This document shows, one piece after another, positions 19,125 to 64,000 of a DNA stretch of 64,000 nucleotides. The translations under genes were made by a program, and so were the position numbers. The notes under the pieces were generated by a model that worked only from the letters and a program-made list of their open reading frames with translations, had not been told where the DNA came from and did no database searches. Positions within the stretch are counted from its first letter, which is position 1. The number at the start of each line of letters is the position of its first letter. This DNA is from Gnetum montanum (lineage: Eukaryota; Plantae; Gnetophyta): NCBI GenBank assembly GCA_015680685.1, contig MNCI01001762.1, positions 89,993 through 153,992 of the forward strand. Direction: 5' to 3'.

Positions 19125-19140
19125 ATCTACCCTCATTAAG
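19125..19140 (-). promoter_or_regulatory. Polypurine tract of Tekay element (decayed)
   Basis: Minus strand reads CTTAATGAGGGTAGAT immediately before the 3' LTR TG. Confidence 0.6.
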
Positions 19141-24935: not shown

Positions 24936-25704
24936 GGTGTAGGGGGGACAATGCAACTACGGCAATGTGGTAGAGGTAGTAGTGAGATGCATAGCAATGG
25001 AGGCCAACGAACGATGTAGTAGGCAATGCTAATGGCAAGTTGGGAGGTAGTGGGTGGTAGTAAAGCATGACACGGGGGCAATAGAGCATGGTGTGATGAC
25101 AATGGAGCATGGCGATAATCAACAGGTGGCAGTAGGTAGGTACCAGATGCATGGTAGCAAGTGACTGGCAACTGGCAGTTGGTGGTTGGTGAGTGATGGC
25201 TAGTGGCTAGTGATTGGTGACTAGCAACTAGTGGCTAGCCTTGGGCCACCACTAGTGGGGCCAATGCTGTTGCTGGTAGATATGGTCACCCTGGCACTTG
25301 AACATGAACCATATACAGTTAGGAGCAAAGGTTCCTTTTCTTAAGAAAATTTTATTATTATTATATTTTTTAATTAAAAAAAATAATTGGGCTCGGGGTT
25401 GAACCCACAACCTCTTACTTCTTTTACAAATTAAATTTAAAATTTTTTAAAAAACATTTTTTTAGTTTTAAAGTACACGTAACCCAAGAAATGCCATATC
25501 TCCTAATTTGTAAGTTAGATTTTGATAAAATTGATAACGTTGGAATCATCTTGAAGAGCACTATGCATTGAGCAAAAGATAATGCTATTTTGGTTGACCT
25601 AGTAATTATAAAATTACAAAAATTGGACATTGGCCCTACTTAATTATTAATTAACTTAAGTTGATACTTCCTCTTTACTCTTACTAAGATTCTTGTTGTT
25701 CTTT

Positions 25705-25712
25705 TATAAATA
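25705..25712 (+). promoter_or_regulatory. Putative TATA box of the antisense accessory gene
   Basis: TATAAATA about 120 bp upstream of the ATG at 25830. Confidence 0.45.
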
Positions 25713-25829
25713 CATGGAAGAAGTCTTTGCCCATCATAGCACAATATTGGAAAAATATTGGAGGATTTAATCAATGGAGAAGATTGAAAATTTCTACTAG
25801 CAATGCAAAGGATTTTAACCATCAAAATC

Positions 25830-28034: not shown

Positions 28035-28190
28035 TCACTATTATGTTTTCTTATTCCTTTTATTTCACATCTTCCCTACTCTTGCATTCTGCCTTTTCCC
28101 TTACATGTAATCTCCTTAGATGTACTTTTTTTTATAATAATAATAATAAAATAATATTTTTTTCCACTTTGGTTCTCGATTCCTAATTTT

Positions 28191-28201
28191 CTTTGATACC
28201 A
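28191..28201 (-). promoter_or_regulatory. Primer binding site, tRNA-iMet type, of Tekay element
   Basis: Minus strand TGGTATCAAAG, 2 nt from the 5' LTR end. Confidence 0.88.
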
Positions 28202-28203
28202 AA

Positions 28204-28719
28204 TGTGACATCTCATTCACAGATGTCATAAAAGCATGTTCATTTGTCACTTAATTCTTCACATTCATGACATTCATAAGAATTGTAATGGAAACATCAT
28301 AAAATACTTAATAAATGAATTAACTAGTAAATGAATAAATGGGTACTTGAAATAGAAAAGGAAATGAAAAAATTTTATTAATAAGAGAGAGTACTATAAT
28401 GCCCTCTAGGTTATCTTCCCATGCCACTAAAGCCTTAGAGGCAATCTAGTACTATCACCATGGTTAGGCTATATAATTGAAGGGGTGATCAATCCCTTCT
28501 TTTCCTACTTCACTTGGCTCCTATTACTTTCCTTTTTCCAAGCTCTACAACTCTATGCTAGCATGACATCCAAACTTGACCTTAAATAACATAGGTCAAA
28601 CCCATTCCTGATGGATACATGAATAGTTGTAACTTCTCATAATGAGGTTTCCCTTCATTTTAAGGTTAATTACATTTTTATAATATGTTTATGCCTTTAA
28701 CAAGAGACGGGATGTTATA
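28204..28719 (-). repeat. 5' LTR of Tekay element
   Basis: TGTGACATCT..GGGATGTTATA, a direct repeat of 18611-19124. Confidence 0.93.
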
Positions 28720-36590: not shown

Positions 36591-38930
36591 CTTGTTAACA
36601 TACTTTGATAAGGGAAGATGAAGACCAAGGAATCATGATAGGGAAAGGGGAAGGAATCATGTGAGACATACTAATAGAAGAATATATCTTGATGAAAAGG
36701 ATAGAAAAAGGGAAATTAGACATGAGAGAAGAGCAATATGAGCATCAAAGTGATCATTACTATAATAGATATTATGAACCAAAAGACTATGAAGAACTTC
36801 TATTAGCAACCCAGGGCATGATTAACATTAAGGAAGCAGTGTATATACTTACCAAACATCTAAGGGATACTCATGTTAAGTCATTTCATATGAATAACAT
36901 TCCAAATTTTTAGGGAGAATAGAATACAAATTCACAACATTATCTTTAAGCTTTCTATGATGCTTGTGCCCTATAGAATATAGAGAATGATTGGTAGAAA
37001 TTAAAGTTTTTTTTCAAAACACTCATGAAAAAAAGTAGAAATTTGGTACAAATCCTTAGAATCAAAATCAATAAAAGATGAAGTACCATGCTAGAGCTCT
37101 TCAATGATAAGTATCAACCTATTCCAAAGTGTCAAACTTAAGGAAATAAATCCAAAGATGAAAAAAAAGGACACATAAGTCCCATAATGCGATAATGAGT
37201 AAATGCTATTCACTATTACCTACATGCCTAGGCCATAGATTTTTTTCAAAAGGAAAAACTACAACATATCATTGATGGGTTAAGAAACAAAACAAAGGAG
37301 ATCCTTGGAATATATTCTTAAGGAAGGTTATTAGAGATGAAAACTCATCAAATTTAATAGTTGGTTCAAGTGACAAAACAAGAATCAGTACAAGAGTGTA
37401 ATAGAGACCCTACTATCAAAAAAAGAGATGTGAGCATATGTGAGACACAAGAAGAAGAAATACTAGAAGACATAATCTAATGAAAGGCTCTACCTATTTA
37501 GAAATTAGTAAATGATATTGCAGCAAAGGTGGAGAAAAGGTGGAATTTTGTGGATGAAAAGTTTGCAACAACACTTAAGATAGTGAAAGAGAAATCTAAA
37601 CAAGTAATTAATAGAAATAAGAATAGGAAAAAGAAGAGGGATAATGAACATAAGCATTATCTGAACAAAGGAAAAGTTGTTGTAGTAGAGGAGGTTATAG
37701 ACTTAAGTAATGAAGATGATAATAATTGGAATCTATGCTATTATGAACATCCTAAGGGATGTTGTCCTATTATGATCCACTTAAAAGAGTCTGAGGCATA
37801 CATACTTAATGTAAAAATTTTCAAAAAAAAAATCCTAGATGATTATCTTATCTACAAGATAATTACAAATAGTCCTTTCAATAATCATACTATTCATGTT
37901 GGGCTTAGCCTCAAAAATAAAAGCAATACCAACAATAATAACAACAATCACAATTTTGGTAGATGTCATTGCTAAAACAAGAGTATCTATATTGATAGCC
38001 AAATCCTTAGGAATATTATGTTCAGCATCCTATATCTCCTAATAATAATTTTGTCCAATTTTATTGTAACTATTATCTAGCTAAGTACCATAGACCTACA
38101 ACCCCATGCATGGAATCATAACCTTATATGTCTCTATCCCTAGCAGGTCATTCTTAAAAAGCTTCCAATCGTTTACTACCAGTACCACCACAAGTAATAT
38201 AAGAAGAGCTATCAACACAATTGTAATAAAAAAGAGGTAACTAAGTAGTTAGTATACATAGAGTAGATAATACCAACAATATTACATGTAAATCTAGAAA
38301 GCTTCCTTTCTTTTAGACAAGTCTAGAAAAGGTTGGTAGAGTAAGGACTCTATCCAACCTTATTTCTTGTACGAAACTTCATCCTACAATCATCATACTT
38401 TGACAACAACCAAATTAAAATTTTAGAAATATCATGTTAACTCATACAATATCAAATTGGATAAATGTATAAACTCTTTCTAAGAAAAGAATAGATTGTA
38501 CAAACCCTCTAATTTATTTGCAAATTGCTGAAAATTTACTATGTAAAAGGTTTTGCAATCAATTTGATATCTCAAGAAACATACAAGAAATGGAACCTAC
38601 TGCCATTAAAGAAGTAACATAATACTAGAGCTTGCAAACTAATCAATAATCATTTATTTAGGATAGGTAGAAGACATGGTGAACATTATTAATGAATGAT
38701 CTTATCCATCAAATTTTCTTGTGATCGATATGAAGAATGATAAGGAGCACTTTCCTATCATTATGGGGAGAGCATGGCTTGCCACAAATGATGCTAAGCT
38801 AGGAATAAGAGATTTATGCTTGAAATGTTTCAATGAAGATGAGTAAGGAGCCATATAGTTGTAAAGAATTCCATGCATTACTTATGATGATGAAGGGTGT
38901 AGTTGTGAACCAAAATTTAAGAATGTTAAC
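36591..38930 (+). pseudogene. gag: Decayed Athila-like gag-protease fragment
   Basis: MNNIPNF..AFYDACAL*NIENDW*KLKFF, WNLCYYEHPKGCCPIMIHL, protease end FPIIMGRAWLATNDAKL; homologous to 420-2600. Confidence 0.82.
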
Positions 38931-42084: not shown

Positions 42085-42829
42085 AACAGCTATTGATTTG
42101 CTCAACTTTAGACTACATTGGCCTATTGGCTTTCTTGGTATTTGCTCCCTCTTTTACTATGTAGGAAAAACCATCATTGGATTTTATTGCCAGGGCTGAA
42201 TTTTTATTTTGTTTTCTTGCTGAATGAGGAGTTTTGTAATTCAGCAAACTTGATCATTGAAGCATGTAGAAGAAGATGTTACATAACCATGATGCATGGA
42301 TGTCAAACATAGGTTTTCATTGTTAGCAAGGTAAGGAGGACTAAAATTTGTTTATAGGATCATGGCTTAGAAGGGATAACAAGAGTGATCTAAGGTAAAC
42401 ACTATTGGAAAGTTCAAATAAGCTAGTTGAATCTAATGTATTGAGGTTGCATGGTAACTCAGTACTATGATGAGTCACAGCTTTATGATGACTTCAGGCT
42501 TATCCTACAAAAATAACTTCAAGAGAACAAGAAAACAAGTTAAAGAATACATGCAATTACAAGAGGTTAGATGAGGTAACAAGGAAATATAGGCCACCAT
42601 TGATTATAACTGGTAAAATATAAGAACTTTGTATCTTGCATTGTAGATTCATACAAATTTTGCAATGTTTTGAGATGCCAAAGAAGATAAAAGATTATGT
42701 AGGTTCTCTTGTTATAGGTTACTCAAATTGTCAATGTTAATCATTTTCTAAACCTAAGAACAAAGGTAAACAAAGGCTACAAGCCAATGGATCAACGTTA
42801 GATATAATGAGTTTTGATATAAGAATGGT

Positions 42830-45040
42830 TGACTAGGTTGGTTAATTCATTCCCATCTATGTCCATGAACTTGAATGCTATGTTGCCATAGGCTTTGGTA
42901 ACCAAGAAAGGTCCTTTCCAATTGGCTAAGAATTTATCTACATGTTCATGTATGGCCTTGAGAATATGGTCTTCTTCCTTGAATTTTTGCCAATTAGGTT
43001 CATGGCGGTAACATTATTTTTCTTCTCTTGATATTGTTCAATGTTAACAAGTGTTTATATTCATTATTTCTTCATCAAATCAAGGTCAATGATATGCAAC
43101 TCTTTATTCTACTCATTAGCGAGGAAATTAGATAGAGCTACCCTTAAGAATGGAACCTACAATTCAAGAGGAAAAATACCTTCAAGTTTGTAAACTATGC
43201 TATAGGATGTGGCACCAGTTATAGTTTAGTATATTGTCCTATAGGTCCAAAGTGCATATCAGAGTTGTTTGTCCCATCTACATTTATCATTATTTAAAAT
43301 TTTCTTCAAAAGGTTAATGATGATCTTGTTACTGGCTTCAGCTTTGTCATTAGCTCGTGGATAGTAGGGTGATAAAAAAGAATGCTTAATATTTGATCAT
43401 TGAAAAAAGGCTTTCATTTCTTAGTTGCTAAACTATGGTCTATTATTTGTGATGATGGTTAGAGATAAGCCAAAATGAAATACTATGTTGTCTAAGATGA
43501 ATTTATAGATTTTTTGTGATGTTTTTTTCCTCAGAGAAATAGCTTCAATCTACTTTGTGAAATATTCGATTGCAGTAATGATGAAGCTATGTCTTGCAGA
43601 GGAATTAAGAGTTATATGTTCAATTATGTCAATTCCTCATCATTGGAACAACCATGTGATTTGAGTAATGTGTAACTCAATTGATGGAACATGTATAAGG
43701 TTGTTGTACCATTGATAGATGTTACAAGTCTTTATCTTCTGTAGGCAATCGCCTTTCATATAGGACCAATAGTATCCTAGATGTCTAATCTTAGAAGACA
43801 TGGCTCTTGGTCCTACATGTCCTCCACATATGCCATTATGAACCTGTTCTAGGACTATATGGACGTATGCTCTACTCAAGCATACTAACAATACACCATT
43901 GTAGGATTTTTGACATAATGTGTTATCAACCATAATGACATATAATTTTGATCATTTATGTACAACATCCTTTTGACAAGTAGTTAGGTTTTGTGGAGGT
44001 TCATCATGTAAGAGGTGAAACTTGTTGTCATCATACCACTCTTGTTGGGATATGTTATCTATGGTTGCTATGGAATTGCTTTGAGTATTTTGTGATATGG
44101 GAAGAGAAAATGTTTTTTTCATGAAAGTTAACTTACTAAACACATCAAGCATTACACTTAAGGTGAACATGGCAATGACATTAACTAATGTATTTTTGGC
44201 TTGGAAAATGTGTTGGATATCAATGTATGTAAACTAATAAATCAAGGTCTTAACTAAGTCATAGTAAGGTTGTAGGAATTTTTCTTTATGTGCATAGACT
44301 TCAATCTATTACAATTAAGCAAATAAACCCATGGTCACAAGCTATCATCAATCCTTTGATTAATCCATCATATTTTACCACATTGTTAGTGCATAGAAAT
44401 TGAAAATGATAGCTAAAATTTTGGATTTCACCAGAGGAAAGTATTATGATGATAGATGAATTGGCTTCATGTGCAGTTGAAGCTTCATCACAGTGCATGA
44501 TGACCTTATAAACTTTGGATATATCATTAATAATGTTTACATGTTCATCAGGGAACTTAGGATCTACAACTGCATTATCTTGTATTGGACAAGTTGTTAA
44601 CTGCATGACTATGGCTTGGCCTTTAATTAAGGCTTGGAAAACATAATGTAGGTCAAACTTGACTATTATGGATTTCCATCAAGCTATTTGGCTACTCTCA
44701 TATATGTTGGTCATGATGGCTCAAAATACATTGTTGTTATATATGATGTTGACTTGACTACTAAAAAGGTATTGCCTCCATTTTTTCAAAGAGAAGACTA
44801 AGGCTAGACTATACTTTTAAGCTCAATGTATAAGGTCTCATAAGCTATCAATGCATAAATCAAGTATTAAATGAGTAACTTTTCTCAATCAACTCATTTT
44901 TTATAGAGCAAAGAGACTATGGATGTGTTGGAGACTACAAGGTAGATGTAGAATGGATTGTCCTTCTAAGGTGGATACATAGTTGGTAACTTAGCTAACT
45001 CTTACTTAATATTATCAAATGTACATTTCAACATGTCATG
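42830..45040 (-). pseudogene. pol: Tat/Ogre-type pol fragment: RNase H, additional (archaeal-type) RNase H, integrase
   Basis: LAKLPTMYPP..FYIYLVVS; LIKGQAIV; aRH VIMHCDEAS..FLCTNNVVKYDGLIKGL; integrase QVHNGICGGH..LGYYW, EYFTK*IEAISL, YYPRANDKAEASNKII, KFLANWKGPFLV. Confidence 0.88.
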
Positions 45041-45129
45041 GATATTACTTTTAATGATCAAATTGAGAAATCAATAACTCTAAACATGAAAAAGATCACA
45101 TCTTACATTTATAGTAGATATTTCACATG

Positions 45130-47170
45130 TATTAAGAATATGATATTTTATGAACCCTAAGAAATGCATTTTTAGGATAAAATTAGGGAGGTTATTAGGG
45201 CACATAATTTTTCAAAAAGGAATAGCCACATATTAATCAAGAATACAAGAAGTCTAGAATATTGAGCACCCTAAACATACAAAGTCCTTGTGCTCATTCT
45301 TTGGAAAAATTAACTTTATAAAGAGATTCATACCTAGATTTGTTGAGATAACAAAGCCTTTATTTACTAATGTTAAAGAAGGATGTGAAAGTTTGAAAAA
45401 AGGTTGAAGAATCTATGAAAGATCTAAAACTAATAAAAATGTCATTATGGAAGCTCCATATCTGGTAAAACTAGGTTGAAAGAAGACTTTTATATGCATA
45501 TGCATCTATAGAATTAATGGTAGTAATATTAACACAAAAGAATAATAAAGAATAAGATACAACTGAATTCTTTGGATATTAATTCAAGGAACCTTTAAAG
45601 AATTACTTAGAATTAAGGAAACAGACATTTTCTATGATTAAATCTCTAATTCAATTCAAGTATTATTTAGAAAATACAGCTATTATGACTATAGAACTAA
45701 TTGTAAGACAATTTTTATCCCAAACTGAAATTGAAATCAAAAGATCTAGTTGGATTACTAACCTAAAAAAATTTAAATTTACACTAGAAATCTACAAAAA
45801 ACTAAAAAAAAAACATAGGTTTGACTAGGATAATGGCAAAAGATTTGAAATATGAATTAATAGCTCCTTTTGAAATCAAATATTAGTATGACAATATTAT
45901 TAGATTTTTTACCAAAAAAAAGAAGTTCCTAAGCATCTCAAAAAAGCTTAGAAAAGAAATTTTATTCATAAGATAAGCAAATACATCCTAATTGGAGGAA
46001 TATTATACAAAAAATATTTTATTGAAATACTATTAAAATGTATGTCAAATTGAAAAATTGAAAAGATTTTAAATAAGTTGCATGATCACAAAGATTTATA
46101 TTATGAATCTCCAAGAGAAACAATGTAACATATCTTAAGATAAGATTTTTAATTTCCCATAATGTATCAAGACTTGAACAACAAAATTTAGACTTTTATG
46201 ACTACTAGGTTCATCAATCAAAGCTTAAAATAACAAATGCTCTATTAAAGGTAGTGGTAGTACATAGACCTTTTCAACGTTGGGACTATACTTTATAGAA
46301 ACCATTACTCAAGCTAATGTAGAACAATGGTTTATTTTTATAGCGACTAGTTATTTCACCAAATGGCTAGAACATAAAGCTCTTAGGGAAAGCACATCAT
46401 ATGATGTAATTAAATTCCTAGAATACTACATCATAAATCATTTTGGAATATCAAAGTCATTAGTTACCAATAATAGTCCTACATTTTAGTCAATTAAATA
46501 TATATAATGGCCTTCAAAAAATATTGTGCTATTTTCATCTTCAAATTATTACCCTCAGGATAATGTTTTGGTTAAATTAACTAACAAAAATTTGATATAA
46601 CATTCCATCTTTTCTAATAGTCTCAAGATTTGTTTTAAAGAGGATTGCGATGGTTAGCTATCCCTCATCTACAAATAAAAGTTCAAGGAATTGGCATGAA
46701 CATTTATAAGGAATTTTATGGATAGATGGAATCAAGATTAAAAAATCAATATCCACTTCACCATTTAACCTTGTTTATGGATTTAATATCGATATAACTA
46801 GTAAGATCATGTTCTTAATAGTAGAGTTCATACACAATTACAATGCAAGAATAGATAAAAAGTGGAGATTAATAATTATGTTAGTAGAAATAAAAGAAAA
46901 AAATAAATGAAGTTCTAAATAAGCTCCTACAAAATGTAGCTATAACAAAGATATGATTTGATCATCAAGTGAGAAAAAGTCATTCAGAGAAGGAGATTTA
47001 GTTTTACTATGGAAAATTAATAAAAAATGTTACCATCACAAATTCTTGGCTAGGTGGAGTAGACTATTGGTAGTTAAATAACAATTGGCTAATACCTTCA
47101 AATTAGCTACGTTAGATGGAGAAGTATTAAGCTATCATTACAACATCATTCATCTAAAACATTACTTTAG
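45130..47170 (+). pseudogene. pol: Non-chromovirus Gypsy pol fragment (RT end, RNase H, integrase)
   Basis: NPKKCIFRIKLGRLLGHII; FFGKINFIKRFIP; FIATSYFTKWLE; SSNYYPQDNVL; TSPFNLVYG; FREGDLVLLW. No aRH between RNase H and integrase. Confidence 0.82.
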
Positions 47171-47315
47171 GCAACCACCAACTTGGAAATAACTTAATGA
47201 AGATGAACAAGAAATGTAAATATGTATATAGTGTATCATAACTATTTTTTAAGAAGCTAGGTGATGAACTAAAATTAGACTATAAATATAATTTATCAAT
47301 AAAACAACAAGAGTC

Positions 47316-48158: not shown

Positions 48159-49750
48159 TATTAGAGTTTAAAAGAATAATTTGGTACCAATTTTGAGCTA
48201 AATCTTTACCATGCACTGGAAGAACATTATTAAAATTGAAGAGATCCTAAAAATGTTGAAGATTAAGTTTTTCTAAGTCTAGATACATGATAATTAACAA
48301 ATGCAGATGAGTGGTATTAATAGCCATAAGTAAAAATCCATTTTAAGAATTGCATGATTATTCACAATTACTTTAAGAATGAAGCTCATTTAACTCAAAC
48401 ATAATTCTAGAGATCAAGTCTTATCCATGATTATGATTAAAGATTTATAGTGAATACAAAATATTGATTAACTCTAAAGAATATTTTTAAAATATCAAGG
48501 TCTTTAAATTAAATAAGGACAAGACTGACATAAGGACCTCATCCATTCAAGCCATTTAGAATCAGTTCATAGAATCAAAATCTAGTTCTAACAATTTTGG
48601 TTTTACAAAGAGTCTAGTTACCACATCAACAATGGACTACTTGGAAAAAGCTCATAAAATTAATATTTCATTTTAAATGAGTTATCTAAAATCAGTTCTT
48701 CAAGGATTGGAATTACTCTACATATCAATAGGAAAGTGCTTGTAGAATGAAAATTTCATTATACAAGAGAAGCTCCATGTTAGCTCAATAAGAAAGCAAC
48801 TGTGGAATCAAAAAATACTTTGACAGAAAAATTCAACCTGGTTCCATTAAAGGCTAAAGTAAGGAATTAACTTTTGTACATAATAGTAAGAAAGCTCATA
48901 GAACCAAAAATTTGTTTTATAAACTAGCTTATTTTGGTACTACCACATCACCTAGTATATTTTTAATCCAGCTAAGGAAAGTGGGATCAAGAAAATCTTA
49001 AGCAAAAGAAGAATATTTTAACCTAAATCAATCTTATAACAAGAGTTTAAGTGCCAAAAAGGCAATTCATAAAGCTTGAAGAACCAAAAAATGGTTCTAA
49101 AAAAAAAGCTTCAAATTGGATCTAGAAAGAATAGTCAAACTTCATAGGACCCAAGCCCATGAGGATTCAAAAGCTTATAGAATAGGATTTGATTCTAAAG
49201 AAGAGACCAAACTTTATTCTATAAATAAGCTCAAGAAGATCTACATATAAACACAATCCTAGTAGAACCAAAAAATGGTTCTGGAGTGAGATTCTCATTT
49301 GATGGTGTTCTAGAATTTGTAAGTGCCACAAAGGCAATAAAAATGCATGAGTAAGACAAAAGATCTAGAAAATTGAATGATGTCATGATTTTTGGAAATT
49401 GCCCCAACTTTATCTTTTGTTTCTTTCATGTTCAAAGTCTAGTTTATGTTAGTAGTTTTATGTATTTAAAGAAGGCTAAAACACCAAGAAAATTAGGTAG
49501 AAAACCTTAGAAAATATTATTTTATAATAGAAAATGGGAAAAAATTTTATCCTACATGAAGAGGAGTTACAAGACCTCTCGACTCCTCAAGCTATAAAAG
49601 AAGGCCATAAGCCTCATTGTAAAGAAAGAATGGAGCAATGAAATTTTCAAGATAAATGAAGTGAAGCTTTTCTTTCTTCTCTCTTGTTCCATCTTTTATC
49701 CATTTGAGTGGCTATTAATTTGTTAGTTTAGGTACCCAAATTTTCTCACA
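48159..49750 (+). repeat. 3' LTR (about 1.6 kb) of the plus-strand Gypsy
   Basis: PPT-like AAAAGGGAAG at 48141-48150; imperfect inverted termini sharing AATTTGGTACC / GGTACCCAAATT..CTCACA; TATA CTATAAAAG near 49592; GAACCAAAAAATGGTTCT sub-repeats. Confidence 0.65.
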
Positions 49751-51305
49751 TTCTTATATCCAAATATCTTACAATTAAGCTCTTCCATCATGACTTATGC
49801 AAGCCCCAATTCTCATAAATTATTCTAAAAATTCTCACATTCTCACAAGTTTAATCATAATTTTTTAGAAATTTTTTCTCACAAAATTCTTTGCATTTTT
49901 TCATGGTGTTCTAGCCATTTTGATTTTTTTTCTTGGTAGAAACAGGCCATTTTTCTAGAATCTAGTCAAAAAGAGTTGATAAAATTAAATTTCAGTGAAA
50001 TCCCATAGCATGTTTTTAGTTGTTTACATGTGGATCTAGGGTTATTTTGCTGTTTTTGCCTTGGTAAATAAGATTTTTAAAAGTAGACTTGCTTTTTTAG
50101 ATGCTTTTTCTAAAATATCAGGTTGAGCCCATTTTCTTAGATCTAGGGCTAAGGATTCATTAAAATTAAATTCTAATGGAATCCTACCCCCTTACATTCG
50201 ATGCTTTTTGTGAATTAGATGTTGGTTTGTCTATTTTGGTCATAATCTATGGTTTCATAATGTTAAATTTGTGTTTTTTTGGTGCAAAAAAGAAAGTTAT
50301 GTTGTGTATTTTTTATTATAAAAATGGCTTAAGTTTTACAAAATTTAATGTTTTTGGTTTTTATTATTGTGGCTATGGTCTTGTTCAATTTGGAGCTATA
50401 TTGATCAAGTTGGCTGTGCAACTGGTGTTTATGCCATTTTTCATATTTTCATCAACATTAATGAACTTGTTTTGAAAAAGTAGCTAAGACTTTGAATTTA
50501 TATTAAGTATGGGTGCATGGGGCTCAATTCAAGATTTCAAAAAGTGGTGGAATGACTCCATTTGAAGCCCGAATGAATTTTTGGTAAATTTTTTTCTAAC
50601 CTTGCACAAATGGGGGTTAATGGTGATAGCTACATTTTCGCTATTTTTGGCTATGTTTTGTATAACAATGATTACATGTTTTTTTGTTGCAATGGTCATG
50701 GCTAGAAAGTTCATGATTTTAGGATTCCTTCCATGGTGGAATCACTAAAATCGAGGATAAGATGCATTTTTTATGAATTTTGTAATAAGGCTATGTTAAT
50801 TGCTCTAAATTTGGTTGTAGCACTTTACCCCTTTGAGGATGGATGTGGTTGTCATAGTTGGAATTGTCAACCTCCATGCCCTAGGGATTATAAATTATGT
50901 TGTAATTTTTTTAATGTATTTTTAAGAAAAAGAGTTTTTTACAATTTTTAGTAAGTTTTTTTTATTTATGTCTATTATGGCCACTTTTTCTATGTTTTGA
51001 TGCTTTCTCTAAATGCATGTTTTGATCTAAGGCATAATTTTGGTTGTGATGTTTTGGTTATAATAGTTTTGGCTATGATATCAAGTCTAGGAGAGGTTGT
51101 AATAATATATATTTTGTTTTGAATTTTCTTAAACAAATTTGAATCAACACCCTAGAGCTTTTTATAGAAGCTAATTTCACCCCCAACTAGGATGTGTAAA
51201 ATTTGATAAGAAGTTACAAGTGTTGGAATGTTATGTTAATGTAGTTTGTTTGTTTTTTTTAATATATTTTCCCCTTGTAGGGTCTTGCTGAAGCCGGTGC
51301 TCATT

Positions 51306-54300
51306 ATGGTTGAGCTTGTTGGGATTCCCTACTATCTTGATCAACCTACAAACCATACTTCTCTTCCTGACTTGGCATTCAAGAAGACATTAATGTGGTT
51401 CTACCCAGAGGCAAGGGATTTTCTTGCCTATCTTCTCTAGTACTTTAGTGTGATGATGTGGTTACACTTGTCTAAGGAGGTGGTTGCAATCATTGTGGAG
51501 ACCTTGTTACTTGCATCTACATGCCTGGTTCCCTGGTTTATAATCTATGGGCCAAAGACTTAGGTAGTAAGAGAATTGGTGGATTTCATCAGTCCATGGT
51601 ACCTTTTAAATATCTGGACCATGCTAGAGTATTCACAATACAACATGAATAATATTCTACTGGTGGCATAAAGAGTTCATTCCTTATTCCAAAATCCTTC
51701 AAGAACTATGTATCGGTTACAAGGGTAAGCACAACTATTAGAGGTTTTAATATTTTGGTTTTATCTCATCTAGTATTCTCTTTTCTAACTTGTTGGTTTC
51801 ACACATATCTTACAAGTGTAGGGTCAATGATCAAAGTTTAATCAAGAATGATCAAACCCTAATGGTAGCCTATACCACATTGAATGAATTCACCAAGGGT
51901 CCCAAGATTAGATATGTTGTTTTTGAATAGCTAAGAGGGGAGTTTGATGAATACCCAACTAGATTTGGACTTGTTTACAAGAAGTGTGTGGTTGCCAAAA
52001 TAACACATAGTTGGTGGGCGGCCCCTAAGGATATCAAAGATATGGGTATTACTGCTGGGACATCCACACAAGCTTCTTTAAGCAAGAAGAAGAAAAGTGA
52101 GAAATCAGGTATGTCGTTATCCTAAAGGTTTTATGGTTACTTAGGCTTTAATTTTTTATGGCCAAAACATAGTTGTATTGATACCAAACACTTGTCTTTT
52201 TCTTATAGGGCCTTCTAGTCTTGTAGATGTTATCATACCTCTCACCAAATGTTCTGTGAAGAATCTCATGCTAAATTTCATTGAGATGGGACCAACATAG
52301 GAATGGTTAAGGGAGAATGCATCTAAAGACATTCAAGCAAACATTGATCATGCAGGATTGCTTAAGATCTTCATGGTGCCCAATCTTGTCATCCCTTCTA
52401 CAGAGATGTTGAATATCATCAACTCTTTTGATAAAAAAATTGATGTGTTCCACACCATAGTACAAGGCCTATATATTGCTATTGCCATTATTAGTTCGTC
52501 TACCTTCCATGAATTATTTGGTGTTCCCTTTGACAGGATAGTAGTTGCCACCAAATTAATGAAAGAGGTAGGCCACCATGTAGAGGTTGAGGAATGACTT
52601 GGTGCTATCAAGGGCCACTTTGGTCTTGCTTGCAGTAGCATTATGAACCCTAATGCAAAAGAATCCTATCCCCTATTCAAATTTAGGGTATTTCCTAAAT
52701 TGTTGTCACAAAAGAAGCTGATTGGCATTGCACAGGGATGGACCTTCAAGAAAGTTATGAAAGAGGATACTCATTTTAACTAGGCAATTTCCTTAGCTAT
52801 GAGCCTCAAAGAGGAAATCCTCAAAATTCGTGTAGACTCTTCCATAATAGTCCACATGCACCATGCGTTTTTTGTAGGCTATTTGAAGAGGTTTTCAAAA
52901 TTTTTGGTGGTTAAGAGATGTGGATCATGGATGTGCTAGGACCCATGACAACTTTCTAGGCCTTGGATAAATCATCTTTATCCAACCATGAGGGCTTAGA
53001 AGCCAACATAGGGTATGGGAGATTCACTATCAGTGACCACCAAGAACCTTGATGTCAATCAGTAGGAATCCCATGACAGCATGGAAAAGGCACCTCTTAC
53101 ATTTCTACCAAACATTAAGAGGGCCCAATGGTTACATGCTAAAGTTGTTGGAGTAGCTAGGGCTAGCCTAAAGAGGCCCATAGAAGAAGCACCACCAGTA
53201 TCAAAGCCACCCTCCAAGCAAAAGATTATCTGCAAGATCCCACACTTGAACTAGGTAGTCACAGGTACACTTCAACTATGTTTTCTTTTCTTTTGACATT
53301 GTTTTTGTTCCATGGCTATTCATGTTTACTTATCTAATGATTTTTGGTTGTAGATCAATGACAAAACCTAGTAGCCTAAGTTGTCACTGCAAAAGAAGAA
53401 TAAAGACAAGTAGTGGATGCACATAGATGGGTCAAGAAGGAAGAGTAGAAGTGTAGGATCATGGTAGAGGAAAAATAGAGGCATGCAAAGGAGGCACTTT
53501 TGCAACAAGATATAGGTGATCTTGACACCGTGTTTGGTGGGTCACTACCTAGGGAGTCTTCGATCAAAATCCTTGATGATGATGAAGATGAAGAGCATAG
53601 GTATGCTTATTCCCTACATGTTATTGCCTACAATATGATGTTTGGTTTTAGAGTTCTTACTTATTCAATAATTATTATGCTTATCGTAGTTCCTAAGCTA
53701 GCAACAAAGGCCCTTGTATCTGACTTTTACATGAAATCATGGATAGAGATCCTAGACAAGATAGAATTTATGCATGGGATGGAAAAGGACATCATTGGTT
53801 AGATGTAATAGGTTGCACCCAAAATTGGTAAGAACTATGTTTTGATATGCCTTAGTCATTTTGCTATGAGATGGATTTTATGCTATAGCTATATTGTATA
53901 TTAGGTTTATGATTATTATCTTTTGTTATTTTTAGTGCCATCAGTCACATGGGATCTAGCCCAAGACATGGAGTTCGACTCCTTATCTAAACTTCCTTTT
54001 GAGACCACACATGTTCCCTTGAAGCTTTACGAAACTACCACTAATTTAGTAGTTTTGTATGCTAAAGCTTCATGGGAGATTCAGAGTGTAACGAATCCCT
54101 ATGGGAATAAGTTATGGTCTTGAAGAAGGAAAATAAAAGGCAAGTTGAGAGGATGTATGATCTCGAGGAATGTAAAGCCTTTGTGAATGCCCAAGTGGAG
54201 AACTCAGGGGCCTTATAGACCAAAGAGCTCACATGGACCTACTACTAGTGCACTATCTATGATAAGATTTCTCTTTCTTGAGAGTTTCATGAGCAACAAA

Positions 54301-54990
54301 TGCAGATGGACTTGATCTCTCAAAGGACACAGGATTGCAAGGATTATTGTGCTTGGGTCCTGGAGTGGGGTAAGACATAAAGGAACCAAAAATGCAAGTA
54401 TAAGGTCAATTGAGATGCTATTTGAAATGGCTGAAGAAGAAGACAACCAAACAAAAAAAGAGAGAGATGTTTATTCAGGGCACTCAGACTGAGTATGCTT
54501 TCAACCTCTTTGAAAGCACTCTAACAATGGTTGAGTCTCCTACTCCACAAACCACCATAGCTGTAGATGAGGTTGCTATGGATACTATCTCATGGGAGCC
54601 ACCATCATGGACGGATGTGGATAGAACCAACATCCTCACAAGCATTAATTTAGGGGACAATGATTGGGCTAGTATGACAGAAGACAAGATCCTCCAACGT
54701 TTGGAGACTAGCCTTCCCCATCTTCCACAAGAGTTCGCAGAGCCCACTTCTCCACAGGTATGATGGGATTTATGTTTTTCATTTAAGTTTTAGTTTTTAT
54801 TATATTTTTATGTTTCTTGTTTTGCATGGTTCATGTTACAATTTTGGTTATGATGATTACTACTTAGTTATGTGTTGCTATCTCATAGGCATTTTATGAT
54901 ATTGGTGGCCCTAGTGGTGTAGGTGATGATGATGATGATGCACCACCTCCTCCTCCTTTGCATCCCCCCTTAGCACCATTAGATGCATGA
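51306..54990 (+). pseudogene. Spliced gene (7 coding exons, about 1020 aa; central PMD-like domain, coiled coil, acidic/Pro-rich tail), antisense to the adjacent Tat/Ogre gag
   Basis: Exons 51306-51724, 51822-52108, 52209-53264, 53354-53600, 53690-53827, 53936-54757, 54889-54990. Six GT-AG introns of 89-131 bp; five junctions keep frame and one (53601-53689) needs a 1-nt indel. An upstream acceptor lies at 51280. Confidence 0.8.
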
Positions 54991-55354
54991 TGTGGTAGTC
55001 TTTAGTATTTATTTAATTTTATGTTTGAGATTGTATGGCTTATGTGAGTTAATACTTGAGTTATAGACATTTTATCATTTATGATTAATAGGTTTAACAT
55101 TTATGCCATACAATGTGGCCATGGCTATATTATTTTATTTTAAGATGTTTTAAATTTTAAGTTTTGGTTTTGGTTTTGGCTATATACATTATTGATTACT
55201 TTATTTTTTAAGGTTCTAAGGTTACAAGTGTTGGAAATATTTATGCAAAATATGACTATGTTTGCTATGTTGAGGACTATAAGATTATGAATAGGCAATA
55301 GTTACTTGTCATTTTTTTAATAATAAGAGAAAAGGCATGACAGGTTGTACATTT

Positions 55355-55528
55355 ATGACTAATTTAAGGCCATGGAGGGCCGTGATGCCAGTTTAGAGTC
55401 TCAGTGGACTACGATGCTAATTTAAGGCCTCGGTGGACCATGATACCGATTTAAGGCCTTGGCAGGCCATGATGCTAATTTAAGGCCTCAATAGGCCATG
55501 GGTTTGCCAGTTTTAGGCCATGCCAGGT
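55355..55528. repeat. 29-bp tandem repeat, about 6 units
   Basis: Consensus near GATGCTAATTTAAGGCCTCGGTGGACCAT; unit starts at 55384, 55413, 55442, 55471. Confidence 0.9.
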
Positions 55529-55728
55529 CCTCGAAGTCTTATATTTTTTTGGTAAAATATTTTGTTAGTTTTTCTAGTTTTATGATTTTATTTATTTTTT
55601 ATTTTTCATTATGCATGAAAGTAACAAAAAAGAGAGGCTATAATGCAAATGAAAGTATAAATCTAGGTTATCTGCATGAAGAGTAGAATAAACTACACAA
55701 ACAAGCATAACAAATTAGTAAAGAAAAG

Positions 55729-58700
55729 CTAAGCTACATGGCTATCAGCTACATGGTCATAAGGACATGGGGTGGAAGGGTTAAGGGGTACTACATTTGT
55801 GCACACTCTTCCTAATCTTTGAAAGATTAGGGAATCAGTTAGATCTACTCTACATAATTTTGTATTCATCATTACCTTCACTAATGATTTTAAATGGGAG
55901 TTCATCCCATGGTGCATCTTGCTACCCATCATTATTGTTATTGGCTTCCTATTTTCTCTTAGGTTGTTGGATCTTGTGATTGGGAATTTCTTCTTGAAAC
56001 TTCACTTTAGGCCCCTGCTCTATGTTGATGTCATTAATTGCTAGGGGCATTGAGTTATCACCATGAATGATGATCTCACCTCCTTCATAAGGAAGGTGAA
56101 TCTCTTGGTGGATAGGAGAAGACATAGCTCGTAACTAAGCCAACCAAGGTCTTCCTAGGATAAGGTCAAACCCAGCTATCTCCTCCACCACCAAAAAATT
56201 TGTAGTCATGGCGAATGGCTTCCTTGCCACAAAATCTAAGGAGATGGGCCCCCTGATAGCAACCCTCAATTCATTAAAAGACTTGAGAGCAGCTATCAAT
56301 GTTTCTTGTATTTGCTCTGTCAACCTGAATCATTCAACAATGGTCCACAGGATGACATTAGTAGCAACACCATCATCTACATGCACTTGATGCATGTTTA
56401 ACTACCCTATGTGTATGATTATGAATAGAGGAGCCCTAGTAATTTCACCATCCTAAGGATTAACCTTAATTTTGCTATCAAAAAATGTTTTAGGTGTTGA
56501 CTTCCCCTCCTTGGATGTGGGAGGACCAATCACTACATTGATGGATTCCTCGTTAGTGGGGATATCCTCACTAATAGGGATAAAATTCAATATTTTGAGT
56601 AATGCCTCACGATGTGTGGCGGAAGTCATGAATAGGCCATACAAGCTTAGAGTAGTATTATTTTGCTTAAGAGATTATCTTACCTAATCTATAGCACTAA
56701 GGAAAATTTTCTTGTTGGCCATGGGCTTATCATCCCATTTGTGCTTCACTTCTTGCATGCATCCCAAAATGTGTACTTTGATCTTAGGTTGTGATTGTTG
56801 GGACTTCTCCTTATTCTTCTGTCCATGAGCTTTGGGATCATCCTATGGTTTGTTGTTTAGAGTGGGTTGGGTAGAGGAGGTCATGGGTATAGTCGATATG
56901 GGACCGGGATTTGGTGGGTCCACATCCTTTTGTGCCTCCATCTACTTGTCACCCTTATTGTGGGGCTTTTGCTTTTATTTTTTCTTTTGCTTATTTGAAG
57001 CTTTTTGGTTGTCAATTGTTGGTTGTGAGGAAGATGTGGTAGGATTGGCTACCATAGGAGATTGTTGGGTGGTCTTATTAGTTGGTGAGGCTATGGCTAG
57101 TTGGGCTATGGTGGGTTGGGGTACCTTCATGATAAATGGTTCCCTGGGAGGCACTTGTGATAGCACCCTTATGAAAAAACAAGATCTTGACCTAGTGGAA
57201 GCTAAAGAAGCCCTTTCACCATAAGGGGATATGCGAATCACAAATGTTTCTCTTGAGGATCTTCAAATATCATCTACATCGAATGTCAATATAATATATG
57301 TAGTATTGCTAGCATTTAGTGAGCCTTTCTATAGCTACATCGATTGATTTTAAGGTTGGATAGGGTTGGATGCATCTAAAACTAGCTCTCTTGTATCTAT
57401 CATCTTTTGCAAATTATCCTTCAGTGCAAGGTAGAAGTTTATGTCATAACTAGGTAGTTGGTGATAGTAGAAAAAGTAGTCTATCTTGAAGTATTTAGGT
57501 AGTGGTGGATCATCTTTTGTTGCTCTAGTAGGGTCCTTGGCTATTTGACAGAGTCTATCATGTTTCTTTCATAAAGCTTCAGACATCTATTTGTATTGGA
57601 TACATTCACTTTTCAATAGTTGATCTAATAGCTTTAATGGTTTTAACGGTAGTGTAGTGTATTTAGACCTATCCTTCCTAAAATTTGGTTTGGTCATTGT
57701 TGATGTGGTGGGCCTAGAGGCTGAAGGTTGGTTATCATAGTTATTATTGGTGGGAACCTTGGGTGGATTGGTTCTTGGCCCCTAGCTAGTGGTCTTAGCC
57801 TCTATAGTTGCTATAGTAATATTGTTATGTTTTCACTTCTCCTTGTCTCTCAGTGTAGGTTTTTGTATGCTACATAGGTTGGGTCATGACTGACCTCTAT
57901 AGCATCTTCTATATTTTTGATTTGGGAGAATGCTTGGCTAAGTGACCGTAGGTCAAGGTAGTAAAGTTTAAACCTAATAAAGTCATTAACTACCCTCTTA
58001 AATATAGCCAAAAGGTGAGTTTTGGCTATGAGCTCTAGTATTTTGTTCATGAGTCCATTCCATCATTGGATGAACTTCTATACGAGCTCAAGGGATCCCT
58101 TCTTAACCTTCATGAGTTGGTCAAGCATGGTATTAGGCTTCAAGCTATATTTGAAGTGATTAACAAACTAAGCTATCAAATCTTCAAGGGAGGATATAAA
58201 TCCTCTAGGTAATGTGTGGTACCAATCAAGTGCTTTCCTAGTCAAGGACACATGAAAAATCCTCATGATGGTATGAGGCCACAGCTGCAATAGCAAGCAC
58301 TTATAAGGTGAGCATTATGGTCACCTTCTCCATAGTGTTTGCTAAATTGAGGGATAGGGACACCAAGAGGAAGTGTCAAAGGTAGGACCACAGGACTGAT
58401 AGGATCATCCTGGTAGAAGTCCATGATCTTTACACTTTGAGATGTAGAGGATTTAGCCTCTTTAACTTCTTTGTCAAGTCCTGGATCATTTAGAAGGCTT
58501 GGACCAGGTCTTGCAGTGGTCCCCTTGGCTGTGAGGCTTACACATATGGCTATGATGTCTATTGCTAGGATTGTGGCCTCACTATGTATTGTATGACAGA
58601 AGGAAGGGGTTGCATTATGGTTGTGGCTTGTGGGCCAAACAAAGAAAAGAATGTTTGTGCTAGTACTTGAGGCATAAATAGGATAAATGGGGTATGTGAC

Positions 58701-59227
58701 CCCTATGTTGCTTGGGGACTCATAGTGAATCCCATGTGAGTAGTTAGTGGATTTATGGTGGTAAAAGCCACCATCGATGGTTTTATACAGTGAGGTTGTG
58801 TTGTAAATGGTATTGATGTGTTATGGTTTGTTGTTTGTGACATTTCCTAAGTTTGATGTGTGGCTATAACAAGTGTGGGGTTCACTGTAGTAAGGTAGGA
58901 AGGAGTGGAAGATGGTGGTACCATGCCCATAGAGAAAACAAAAGCATTGGAAGAAGGTGTTGTGACCTTTGGGGATGTTTGTTGGAACAGTCCTCCCAGG
59001 ATGTCTTCAGGCTTAGATTCTACCTTAAGTTCATCCTCCTCTTCCTGTTGTTCCTCATAGCTATGTTTGTCATCTTCTTCTTCCACGACAATCATTTGGG
59101 CTAGGATGCTAGCATAGATGTTAGTAAGGAAAATTTGATCATATGGGGAAGGGATGTACTCTTTCCCACTCCTATGCATGAGCTCAAATTCCCTCTTGGC
59201 CTTGGCTTCAATTCATGGAATTAACAT
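55729..59227 (-). pseudogene. gag: Decayed Tat/Ogre-type gag-protease
   Basis: Gag SLTRKALDWYHTLPRGFISSLEDL; Tat-type knuckle remnant FYYHQLPSYDINFYLALKDNLQKMID; LFMTSATHREALLKIL; protease VHVDDGVATNVI..FDLILGRPWL..SSPIHQ. Ends at a stop with no RT following. Confidence 0.85.
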
Positions 59228-59659
59228 GCCTATTTGTATTTTAGCATAAATGAAATTATAACAATCTTCATTTATGACTACAAAGTTAGGACTCTCCCTT
59301 CTAACTCTCAAAGATCACCTACACTCAATGATAGCAAGGTCTTTGGGATCATAGACCCTCACGACTTGTTGATATGACCTACTATCATTATAGTTGTAAG
59401 GCAACTTAGTTGATCATGGGAGAGACATGGGTATTTTAATGAAGATGACTCAAGATAGGGTATGAAAAGAGAAAATGAAAGTATATTTTAACAATGGAAA
59501 TCAAAAGCAATCAAAGGAAACAAAAATGGTTGAAACCAGACACTTACTAAAAATGGCAAGCAGGGGGTAAGAGGAAGTACAATTCTTTATCCAAAATGGA
59601 AAGGCACAAAAGTTATAGAAAAATTTACTCACACTAACCTTTTAGTTGTCACACTCCTT

Positions 59660-60060
59660 AATGCCAACATTGGCTTCCTAGCTATCACACCCCTGGATGT
59701 GGTAGAGGGGAAGAGGGGGTGAGATGGGGGGGATCTCACACTTTACAAAGCCAACATTGGTAACAAGGGGTGAAAGCTATTATAGGTGTGAAGAAAAGGA
59801 TGCAAATTTTTACAGTTGGAAATTCTATAATGTTTAAATCTAGCAAAAATAGGCAAAATTGATAAAAAATAGATTGCTTACTATAACTAGTAAGTGGAAG
59901 GTAAGGGGGCTTTACCCCTTTACTAGAAATGGCACACTAAGAATGTTGAGGTCAAGCTTCACCCATGTTGGTCTCCTAACTATCACACTCCTAAGTTTGA
60001 CAAGGGGGAAAGAGGAGGTGAGATGGGAGGATCTCACACCTTCTTTAACCAACATTGATG
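59660..60060. repeat. Two ~95-bp direct repeats (period about 300 bp) in the Tat leader
   Basis: CCTAGCTATCACACCCCT..GGTGAGATGGGGGGATCTCACAC..CCAACATTG and CCTAACTATCACACTCCT..GGTGAGATGGGAGGATCTCACAC..CCAACATTG. Confidence 0.8.
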
Positions 60061-62166
60061 AAAGGGAAAAAAGTGGAACAACCAAAATAGAAACCTACAA
60101 CTTTCTGAAAATGGTTTTAGAAACTACCCAAATTCAACCACAAAAAGTACTTTTGGTTGGTAATGATGGTAATGTTTGTTTTGTTGTGAGAATTATTGCC
60201 AAGGTAAAACATTGGTATGTATGTTTTCAACATTGGTTTTGGTTGTTGAAATTCATAGTAGATGTTGGAAAATTCAACACCCAACCACCTACAACTTTAA
60301 CATTGGGGTTTCTATTACAAGGGGTGAGTGATATCATTGGGTTTTCAAAAGGAGCTTCAAGGTCTTTGTTAGAAAAATTAGAGATTTCCAGTAAGTAGGC
60401 AACGTTGGCTATGGGGGCAATTAGATTTGGCTATAGAAATTAGGCAAAGGCCCTCCTTCTAATGCCAAGAAATTATTGCAATAGAAAATCTTGGTTGTTG
60501 GAGAAACCAAGGATTCTCAGTCACAAGCAACCGTAACCCCAAATCCCCTAGGAGCTCCATAAGAAAAATGGAATTCATGGTGTCCTTGATGGTCTACTAG
60601 ATCACCCAGGGACTTAGAGGGGGTGCAAAATGGAAGTGTAAAAAGATGCAGATTTATAAAATAATGCACTAGAAATATAACAATTATATTTGAAATTATA
60701 CACAAACTAAAATCACAAATTTCACTAAATGAACAAAGAATGATTTTCAAATTTGAGCATGTAGAAATTATAATCAATTTCCTCACTAAAGTCCATTCTT
60801 ACCTTGCCTTGCTAATATGTGGTAGATGACTTTGCTATTTATACTGATGATTGTGTATGAAAATTACTAGAAGGGAAAAAATATCATTATCGCACCATAG
60901 AAACATGAAAATGAGTACTAACTTGGAAGGATAGGCTTACTAGGCATCAAAAGGATGGTACTAAGGTGGTGTGGATTTCCTGCTTATTTGGCCATGATTC
61001 CTGAAGGGATGGGAGAAGTAGAGGAGTCTTGGTGAAATAAGCCACAACTAAGAGCAAAAGACACGGAGTAGTGCAATACAATTTTGCAGGGATAAGATCT
61101 ATCCCCATGGGTGGTGGCTTTATATTATAAAGCCACTACCTTGCTATTACCTTTTATTTTTTTTGGATTTTTCATTTTATTTATCTTCAACGAAGAATCG
61201 ATGTTGTTTGTTATTAATCAAGTTAAACTTCATCATGACTGACCAAAATCAATATGATGATTCTTAAGACTCTCAGCATATCGAAGTTCATCACAGTTGT
61301 ACTATTCAAATGTGAAAGTTTCAAAAAAATGTTTATTTATCGATCTACATCAATACAATCAACATGGATCAATACCACCATATAATAACATATCTAAGTT
61401 CATTGTAGTCATGTTGTTCAAACGTGAAACTCTCCAAAAAAAAATTTCGGTATTGATCTACATCAATTCGATTGACATGGATTGATATCATTGTATAATA
61501 AAATATTGATTTTAATTGATGAGATTGATATATTTATTTATAACCTGAATGTAAATTCTACCTTTATTGATTGGAATTACACAAATCAGTATAATTTGAT
61601 TCCATTTATTACAAGACATTGATAATGTGATGTTGGTTGATATTGTTAAACCTTAAGGAATTTTTTTCCTTAGTGCATCTATGAATATCAATTCCATGAT
61701 GTCCCTTTATAAAATAATCTTATTAATGTCATGTCATTGCATCCTTCGATATTAATCAATATGATTAAAATAAAAGAAAATAATTTTATTAGCTAGTTTA
61801 TTAATACATTTTACTTTGTTATTTTTACTTCTTGTCATTAGATCTTATTATTAAGGTAGGAATTCACATATAACTTGCTTAGGAAGGCTTTTCCTAGGAT
61901 TATTTGGGCTAAAACTTCTCCTTACAAGGTCTACTTTGTTTGTTGGAAGAATTACTTACTATCTCAAGGTTTCTACCTTTCCTAAGTTTTAAAGATCTAA
62001 GATGCATTTTTTTTCAATAAACTCATTCACTAACTTGCTCTTGGATCAAATTTCAAGTTGGTTATACCCTACTATCCTATCCAAGTGTCTTACCCCACAT
62101 CCCCCTAATTAATCTAGGTTGTGTCCCTAGTCTAGGTTAATTAGTTGAATTATTAGTATTAGGGAT

Positions 62167-62765
62167 TAATGAATCAATAAAGAGTCATGTTGATGGGCCC
62201 TTGTTGACGTGGCCTCATCAACAAGCCTACATTAATGCAACCCCATCTATGTAATGTTGCCCCATCGATGGGGCTGCATCAACATAGCATTTGCTGCATT
62301 TATGAGGCCCTGTTGATGCAACTTCATAATAAAGTCTATAAATACATGCTCACCCACATTATTTATGGCATATCTTATCATACTTGTAGTGAAACTCTTG
62401 CAGTTTCCTTTTTCCAAAGTTAGAATATTTTCCAAGTGCCTACAATAGGAGTCATTGAATGTATAGATCTTTATTCAAGCACTATTGTACCTGAGCACGG
62501 TAGTGTGTGCGGCAATAAAGATGAGCTTTCTAATAAACCTTACAATACTTTAGCTAGATTAATATTCTCTTCATGCATTTAATGGTTTTAGTAATTTTAT
62601 TTAATGCTTTTAAGTAAATTAATCTAACTAGGCTAAACTAAGCTAGCTAGGGTAAAGAACAATCAATGAAACACATAAGTATGACCACTTCAAGCATGCG
62701 TATGGTGCTTGGTAATCCCAGTAACACTTAATGTTTGGCAACCTAGTAGCTATACATGTTCAAAA
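62167..62765 (+). repeat. Athila-like LTR, 3' truncated
   Basis: Starts TAATGAATCA and is collinear with 6686-7195 (TGTTGATGGGC, GTCTATAAATA, GTTAGAATATTTT, GCAATAAAG, TTGGCAACCTAGTAGC). Confidence 0.75.
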
Positions 62766-64000
62766 TTTTTATTTATTCATAATGTTATAGATTGATAGCG
62801 ATACTCTTGGGAAATAATTTATATTGTTAATGAACTTTAATTAACTTAGCAAAAACATGTAAGCATTTGCTTAGTATATTAAGAAAAGTTAATTATAACA
62901 TATAACATACATTATTTTTATTGAAACTAAAACTAAATTTTTATTTACATCCACTAAGACCATGTGGATCTACCAAACTAGTTTTAGAATTCATTTGTAC
63001 ATCATAATTTTTTGTACATAACTTAGCTTAGCTGACTAGAATTGAACATGAGACTTGGGTTTTCCAAGCCAAGGCCTTAAGACATATAGGCAACATGATA
63101 CTTGAGAAGAATTATAGATGAATATAATGATGCCTCTTAAGTGCAACTCAAACTAAAAACCTCTTACTTAAGAAAACACTAATCTTTAATAACCTCTTGC
63201 TTAATAAGACATTGAGCTAACTACTTGAACCACCTATTGATCAATAAACTTTAAACTAATCTTTAACTATGAACAATTTTAATTAGTCTTAACATGAACT
63301 AATAAGCATTATGAAGGAGATCAAGGATAACCAAAGTTAAATATAGGAAAATATATTAGTTAACTTTCAATTCTCTAAAAATATAAGATGTAAATTCTTA
63401 TTTCAAAGGGATGAGTTTTCCGAACAACCACCAACCTTGGTAGTATATTTTGGATGTCTTGGTTCTCCATTTTGGCTATGGAAAAGATGGCCTTTTGTTG
63501 GCAAAGAATTTTAAGTTGCTACTCTAGTTTTCTTGACATTCAAACTACATTTTCATATATCGATCATATCACCCCTAAGTTTCCTAGATTCTTTTTATGC
63601 TGATAAGAATACATTGAAGTTAAAGCAACTTATAAAGCTTCCAATTACTTGTATTCCGTCAAGTTTGACAGTCCAAAAAAATCAAGGTGAAGGAATATCA
63701 TAATAGTTGTGGTTGCTATCCTTACTATGGTTGCAATAATGAATAGTCAAAGAAATAGTCTTAGCATTAATCAAATTCTAGGAATACTCTCTATGTATAC
63801 TTTAATTTATATAAAAATATAATATTTAAAAATATGATTCTTCTTTGTTTACAGATTGTTTGCCTTTTCTATTTGGAAAAGAATTTCTTGCAACCTAACC
63901 ATGTTATGTAGCAGATATGATTAGTTAACCTAAACCTCCATGATTACAATGTTTTTCTTTTAGGATACAATGTTAGCTACCCTCTAGCACCTATAACCCA

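Follow-up and report, generated by a model that had tools for sequence, protein, structure and literature searches.

A decayed seven-exon gene antisense to a gag-protease region in Gnetum montanum, probably the accessory gene of a non-autonomous Ty3/gypsy element

How does a gene with six introns come to lie tail to tail with the gag-protease (gag-PR) region of a retroelement, and does it belong to that element? The question is raised by a stretch of 64,000 nucleotides of Gnetum montanum (hereafter the window), in which an earlier note had described a seven-exon gene of about 1,000 aa, antisense to a Tat/Ogre gag-protease. The window is repeat-only DNA, with observed/expected ratios of 0.06-0.22 for CG and 0.16-0.49 for CHG, a depletion that would point to a large, heavily methylated land-plant genome. 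In our reading, which we consider probable, the gene is a dead copy of a repeated antisense accessory gene carried by a non-autonomous Ty3/gypsy element that lacks RT-RH-INT and probably belongs to the Ogre/Tat group.

Table 1. Positions in the window of the antisense gene, its neighbours and the second element
Feature	Position	Strand	Remarks
Complete Ty3 element	18611-28719	-	LTRs 18611-19124 / 28204-28719, 84% alike
Second antisense gene, decayed	~25714-28035	+	between 5' LTR and gag of element 18611-28719
TATA-like motif, candidate promoter	49593..49599	+	left edge of repeated block
Candidate 5'-UTR intron	49732..51280	+	AG/GTACC ... TTGTAG, T 0.43, GC 0.30
Exon 1, coding from first ATG	51306..51724	+	3 stops; exon start possibly 51281
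Intron 1	51725-51821	+	GT-AG
Exon 2	51822..52108	+	1 stop; basic SKKKKSEK at its end
Intron 2	52109-52208	+	GT-AG
Exon 3, largest tract	52209..53264	+	9 stops in 351 codons
Intron 3	53265-53353	+	GT-AG
Exon 4	53354..53600	+	5 stops; charged helix-like stretch, acidic DDDEDEE
Intron 4	53601-53689	+	GT-AG
Exon 5	53690..53827	+	entry and exit best frames differ
Intron 5	53828-53935	+	GT-AG
Exon 6	53936..54757	+	coiled-coil-like middle, acidic tail; frame breaks near 54.09 and 54.42 kb
Intron 6	54758-54888	+	GT-AG
Exon 7	54889..54990	+	Asp run, Pro run, stop
29-bp tandem array	55359-55500	.	4.9 copies, between two converging 3' ends
gag C-terminus and aspartic protease frame, decayed	55784..57262	-	VHVDDGVATNV at 56386-56354, later DLILGRPWL
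gag, decayed	57853..59430 (upper end approximate)	-	Retrotrans_gag
PBS-like motif, tRNA-Asn type	60451..60467	-	sole match in window
Probable 5' LTR	60475..61000 (edges approximate)	-	upstream of PBS; depth falls at 61001-61600

Structure, decay and coding content of the seven-exon gene

The seven-exon structure of the gene is real. Its six GT-AG introns are T-rich and measure 89-131 nt each, and the coding tracts between them sum to ~1,020 codons. GC content is 0.28 in the introns against 0.41 in the exons, and the share of T is 0.49 against 0.28. A fixed intron-like rule recovers all six within 3.2 kb (two of them via a neighbouring donor or acceptor) and marks 14 places over both strands of the remaining window, three of these inside a second antisense gene; the Poisson probability of such clustering is ~2e-6, for a rule tuned on these very introns. 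Composition and clustering together bear out the six short introns of the earlier note. Splice phase is consistent with the lowest-stop frames on either side at introns 1, 2 and 6. At intron 3, the in-phase downstream frame, with five stops within its initial 45 codons and none later, reads as a charged helix. Phase at introns 4 and 5 is consistent only given one frame break inside exon 5, which we place somewhere within that exon; the reading frame is ambiguous for exon 5 as a whole and for the latter half of exon 1.

Upstream of exon 1 lies a candidate leader intron of 1.55 kb, and the TATA-like motif before it may be the promoter of the gene. The surroundings of this motif (49434-49900) show thin cover by related RNA reads. 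A 16-nt word occurs twice in identical form, at 51213, just 5' of exon 1, and at 55221, within the non-coding 3' part of the gene.

The gene was once real, and the copy in the window is dead. Across the 1,016 codons of the chosen tracts there are 27 stops, compared with 157 in 2,014 codons of the other frames (frames picked afterwards). These 27 comprise 16 TAG, 6 TAA and 5 TGA, a pattern consistent with deamination of methylated C. About three frame breaks come in addition, one in exon 5 and two in exon 6, so that the single protein of about 1,000 aa proposed earlier stands as to its length but not as one open reading. At the exon 6 breaks, 4-33 contigs per DNA run (25-49% of depth) deviate in length from the window, and the breaks are therefore not fixed in the family. 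The earlier note had also proposed a search for junction reads, which gave no splice joints for the gene in the portions covered (2-26% each) of four RNA runs from 3 samples and 2 studies. The same portions of these runs leave positions 51769-52235 with zero cover, and 97-99% of their aligned reads match the stretch only partially.

All the sequence motifs on which the gene had been described are present: SKKKKSEK at 52081, NSFDKKIDVFH at 52421, SSSTFHELFGVP at 52493, HFN*AISLAMSLKEEI at 52772 and the C-terminus at 54889-54990. SKKKKSEK is a putative NLS-like patch, and exon 3 probably encodes a helical globular domain followed by a low-complexity basic stretch. The spacing of the exon 3 motifs may resemble that of the plant mobile domain (PMD), a likeness that we put forward with some doubt. 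As for the coiled coil assigned to exon 4, that exon does have a crude heptad score of 0.97, but this barely exceeds the score of exon 3 (0.95), and exon 6 scores best (1.10).

Homology searches with exon 3 found no homologue in a word search against longer proteins only, none, host or other, among 1.84 billion representative sequences of uncertain plant coverage, none in metagenome and viral contigs, and no match in the PDB. Control word searches with the protease region and gag were likewise empty, so the word-search blanks for exon 3 carry little weight. Pfam gave only chance-level matches (DUF2441, Imm74) on the chosen tracts of the gene and no transposase match on those scanned. In the profile check suggested in the earlier note, PMD (PF10536) had no match up to E 10, in a search that also misses the neighbouring decayed protease. 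TRP28 (PF04195) matched no exon tract and no alternative frame of exon 1 in this decayed sequence. A protein atlas search with the exon 6 tail returned no usable match, and a single-sequence fold model of exon 3 (pLDDT 33) was unusable.

The gag-protease side and the extent of the repeat

The gene and the minus-strand gag-PR lie tail to tail across the 29-bp array, and the convergence described earlier is correct. The array pattern has no match in viral contigs and two in metagenomes, both chance, and Rfam gave 0 matches. For gag, the Pfam match to Retrotrans_gag (~58263-58012, E 0.0013) lies below the cut-off. The protease was missed by both Pfam and PDB and was identified from its motifs. 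For a piece free of stops that lies upstream of the protease, the nearest atlas clusters were Asp_protease_2 and G-patch (0.76-0.84, a lead only, below 0.9). Besides this lead, a likeness of gag-PR to Ogre/Tat is suggested by its motifs.

Upstream of gag is a PBS-like motif, which we take to be of the tRNA-Asn type. With decay of methylated positions allowed, it had one match in 100 resamples, and an Arg-type PBS has no match in the window. The leader between PBS and gag contains a 100-nt duplication (59670-59769 / 59968-60066, 75% alike). This side therefore has what defines a Ty3/gypsy element, gag and an aspartic protease in one orientation after a PBS-like motif, and the layout is that of Retand, with a tandem array and an antisense ORF downstream of the sense genes. 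No second LTR for the gag-PR side, and neither a 3' LTR nor a PPT followed by TG, was found in the window. No RT frame follows the protease, whose frame ends at ~55.78 kb, and this copy has no RT-RH-INT there.

Two heavily decayed pol fragments lie back to back at 42800-47200. The minus-strand fragment holds RH, an aRH-like domain (RVT_3, E 0.039) and integrase (E 1.3e-7), and the plus-strand fragment, read by eye, runs from RT to integrase. The order RH-aRH-INT is known from Ogre and Retand of angiosperms (PMC6317226, accessible part). We considered these fragments as the pol of the element and rejected them, as they have two orientations, are more decayed and lie at low depth. Another gag-protease family is present elsewhere in the window, with three diverged copies at 410-2600, 8568-10709 and 36785-38900 that are 65-70% alike. 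Positions 62201-62800 hold a very deep repeat, probably part of another LTR, with a summed depth of ~100,000-165,000 in all four DNA runs and more RNA reads than any other part of the stretch analysed.

Depth was taken from contigs of four DNA runs aligned at 80% likeness and is not a copy number. All four runs show low depth at 46.0-49.6 kb, a rise in the bin 49601-50200 and a drop at 61.0-61.6 kb; the plateau between them (49.6-61.0 kb) takes in the gene, the array, gag-PR and the leader as one block. The bin medians of run X1 are 106 for the flank, 3,073 for the 5' region, 2,986 for the gene, 3,682 for the junction with the array, 5,377 for PR, 16,881 for gag, 2,482 for leader and LTR, and 197 for the next bin. 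The bins of the gene thus reach ~28 times the flank depth in this run, and the gene is repeated rather than a host gene in single copy. Parts of 51200-59400 are represented in 16 DNA runs from 6 studies with 6 organism labels. We read the abundance of the gene as on par with that of the family-specific leader, and the depth of gag as including sister families. Depth in the gag and PR-tail bins exceeds that of the gene by a factor of 3-10, from which we conclude that most relatives of this gag lack the gene or carry a diverged one.

Decay gives a second measure. The stop rate is 2.7% in the antisense gene and 2.1% and 1.9% in two gag-PR frames; counted in the best frame, it is 2.3% in exon 3 and 2.5% in gag-PR, whereas the pol fragments at 42.8-47.2 kb reach 4.1-4.7%. 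The gene and gag-PR are equally decayed, and the pol scraps are older.

Ownership of the gene

That the gag-PR element owns the gene, as the earlier note had supposed, is the probable reading. The depth plateau and the decay agree with the gag-PR side, but a shared LTR pair is missing from the argument, as no second LTR was found.

The strongest competitor, which we regard as unlikely, makes the gene part of a plus-orientation LTR element, with an LTR near 49.6 kb and with the gene in the place of the 5' extra ORF that some Ogre elements carry, or part of another repeat; its junction with gag-PR would then exist only here or in one recombinant subfamily. The TATA motif at the left edge of the block, together with CATTGTAA, would suit such an element, since it resembles LTR R regions. 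The upstream DNA is of low depth, however, which leaves no repeated U3 there, and none of five types of plus-strand PBS occurs between 49.7 and 51.3 kb. Sense 5' PMD-CC ORFs are known in Tat lineage IV (PMC4408406, accessible part), but no plus-strand gag follows the gene here, and retrotransposition would be expected to remove six introns from the sense strand. The excess of gag and PR depth over gene depth fits this competitor, as does the lack of any bridge between gene and PR among the 32 contig pieces listed (320,043 others).

A DNA transposon is a less probable source still. Here the gene would be the intron-rich accessory gene of a CACTA (TnpA-like), a MULE (VANB/VANC-like) or a Helitron (as cargo) inserted beside gag-PR, and the array would be a subterminal repeat. 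Multiple short introns and coiled coils are typical of such genes (TnpA and VANC in the accessible part of PMC13547354), copying at the DNA level preserves introns, and the copy number of the gene is high. Yet no TIRs around the gene rise above background, CACTR and YAGTG are each found once only, internally, the scanned tracts have no transposase match, and depth does not drop at the junction. At the junction between gene and gag-PR, neither a TIR nor a second repeat end stands above background; three end-to-end alignments that beat letter shuffles were rejected, as such scores arise in 5-17% of 144 random tile pairs. The two circumstances that the earlier note had set against its own proposal are a TIR-bounded transposon, of which no TIRs were seen, and a single-copy host gene, with which the high depth and the decay disagree.

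Passive amplification of a captured host gene, or of a fragment of a host gene family, with no function for the element is very improbable: splice signals are ordinary for plants and gymnosperms frequently capture gene fragments (PMC13477047, accessible part), but the entire unit from promoter to stop is amplified, the gene has decayed as far as gag-PR, and exon 3 lacks a host homologue in the representative sequences (a weak point, given their plant coverage).

The same window contains an antisense multi-intron gene whose enclosure is plain. The complete element at 18611-28719, presumably chromovirus-type, has flanks that match at 4/5 positions (target site), a Met-type PBS at 28201 and PR-RT-INT-SH3 by Pfam. 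The second antisense gene inside it has four short GT-AG introns (26690-26759, 26880-26945, 27067-27144 and 27691-27782), the last three of which are consistent with one reading (by eye), and no Pfam match. The layout therefore occurs in this genome, as the second gene sits inside a complete LTR pair, which shows that the layout exists, not that the seven-exon gene has the same enclosure. Kinship of the two genes was rejected: 3 of 48 tract pairs fell at or below 4 of 200 shuffles, with a best score of 39 and no convincing alignment.

Known antisense genes, a possible life cycle and significance

The assignment to Tat/Ogre given in the earlier note, or one to Retand, is not established, with RT-RH-INT missing and a PBS of a type that is in the minority in those lineages. 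The accessible part of PMC6317226 gives tRNA-Arg as the PBS of 89% of Ogre elements and tRNA-Asn as rare in Ogre, Retand and TatIII, and its supplement reports eORF-3'R in 60% of Ogre, 86% of Retand and 18% of TatIII elements. A close resemblance is to Tat III and Ogre: gymnosperm Tat III has an antisense 3' PMD ORF (PMC4408406, accessible part), and the PMD or PMD-CC ORFs of these lineages share with our gene the orientation antisense to gag, the position 3' of the coding region, an OTA-like gag-PR and a globular domain followed by a coiled coil. The gene described here differs in its six introns, its ~1,020 codons and the lack of a Pfam PMD match, and the element in lacking RT-RH-INT and in its tRNA-Asn-type rather than Arg-type PBS. 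For TatII, the accessible part of PMC6317226 reports an Asp or Asn PBS (the Asn class being 15%), an aRH between PR and RT, and no listed eORF-3'R. The Asn-type PBS fits that 15% class, but nothing follows PR here, and the features listed for TatII include no antisense 3' gene.

Retand offers a converging antisense ORF, a tandem array at the end of the sense genes and non-autonomous forms, among them clusters that lack RH and INT yet retain TRP28 (PMC11963269 Table 1, accessible part). Our gene, in contrast, has no TRP28 match; the accessible text of PMC11963269 calls ORFs without splicing and does not mention 'intron', and its Retand elements come from eudicots and monocots only. Maize Grande gene23 is antisense, is read from an upstream promoter of its own and has a nuclear product, features predicted here from the TATA-like and basic motifs, but introns are not described for it in the accessible part of PMC7264820. 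Multi-exonic antisense transcripts of Arabidopsis Copia elements are spliced antisense units in LTR elements too, but they do not encode protein, and their start lies in the 3' LTR (bioRxiv 10.1101/2024.04.02.587720, accessible part). The brtn unit of Boty is likewise antisense in an LTR element; it is fungal, however, and the accessible text of PMC8365987 does not describe introns for it.

Antisense 3' ORFs are thus already known in Tat, Ogre and Retand, and the literature searched, which excluded most subscription papers, yielded no plant LTR element with a protein-coding antisense gene of several introns and no six-intron version of such an ORF. Arabidopsis ATLANTYS elements have multi-exon gene models, so that annotation may already have recorded introns in genes of this sort.

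If the gag-PR element does own the gene, its genomic RNA would initiate in the LTR near 61 kb and run through gag-PR and the array, and then through the gene in reverse. Introns would be retained on that RNA because their splice sites are reverse-complemented there, and would therefore be carried into each new insertion. The gene itself would have a separate promoter near 49.6 kb and perhaps the 1.55-kb leader intron, and splicing of its transcript would yield a protein of ~1,020 aa with an N-terminal domain, a basic NLS-like patch, a helical domain, a coiled coil and an acidic and Pro-rich tail. RT and integrase would be supplied by autonomous relatives. Our leading, though tentative, suggestion for the protein, by analogy with PMD-CC and TRP28-CC proteins, is a nuclear, trans-acting chromatin or anti-silencing helper. 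The PMD proteins MAIN and MAIL1 act in silencing (PMC5418596, accessible part) and VANC acts in anti-silencing (PMC13547354, accessible part).

We also propose, speculatively, that plants with giant genomes harbor a hidden class of host-like, multi-intron coding genes in LTR retrotransposons, protected by their antisense orientation and gained independently by several lineages, and that an RT-less family kept such a gene while losing pol. Two examples would then lie in the same 64 kb: the 3' seven-exon gene, from an undescribed family of 1,000-aa proteins in an amplified RT-less Ogre/Tat-like element, and the 5' five-exon gene of the chromovirus-type element. ORF-based surveys would have missed this class. 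The extra ORFs in the accessible parts of PMC11963269 and PMC6317226 were surveyed as unspliced frames, so genes like the seven-exon one would be broken up or overlooked.

What the antisense ORFs of plant LTR elements do, and where they come from, are open questions in the field; a review calls for the study of spliced antisense transcripts (PMC7264820, accessible part). Should the ownership proposed here be true, the introns would be a record of the origin of the gene, by DNA-level capture or by intron gain, and the retention of the gene in a pol-less element would speak for a selected function. Repeats of this kind can inflate gene counts in giant plant genomes.
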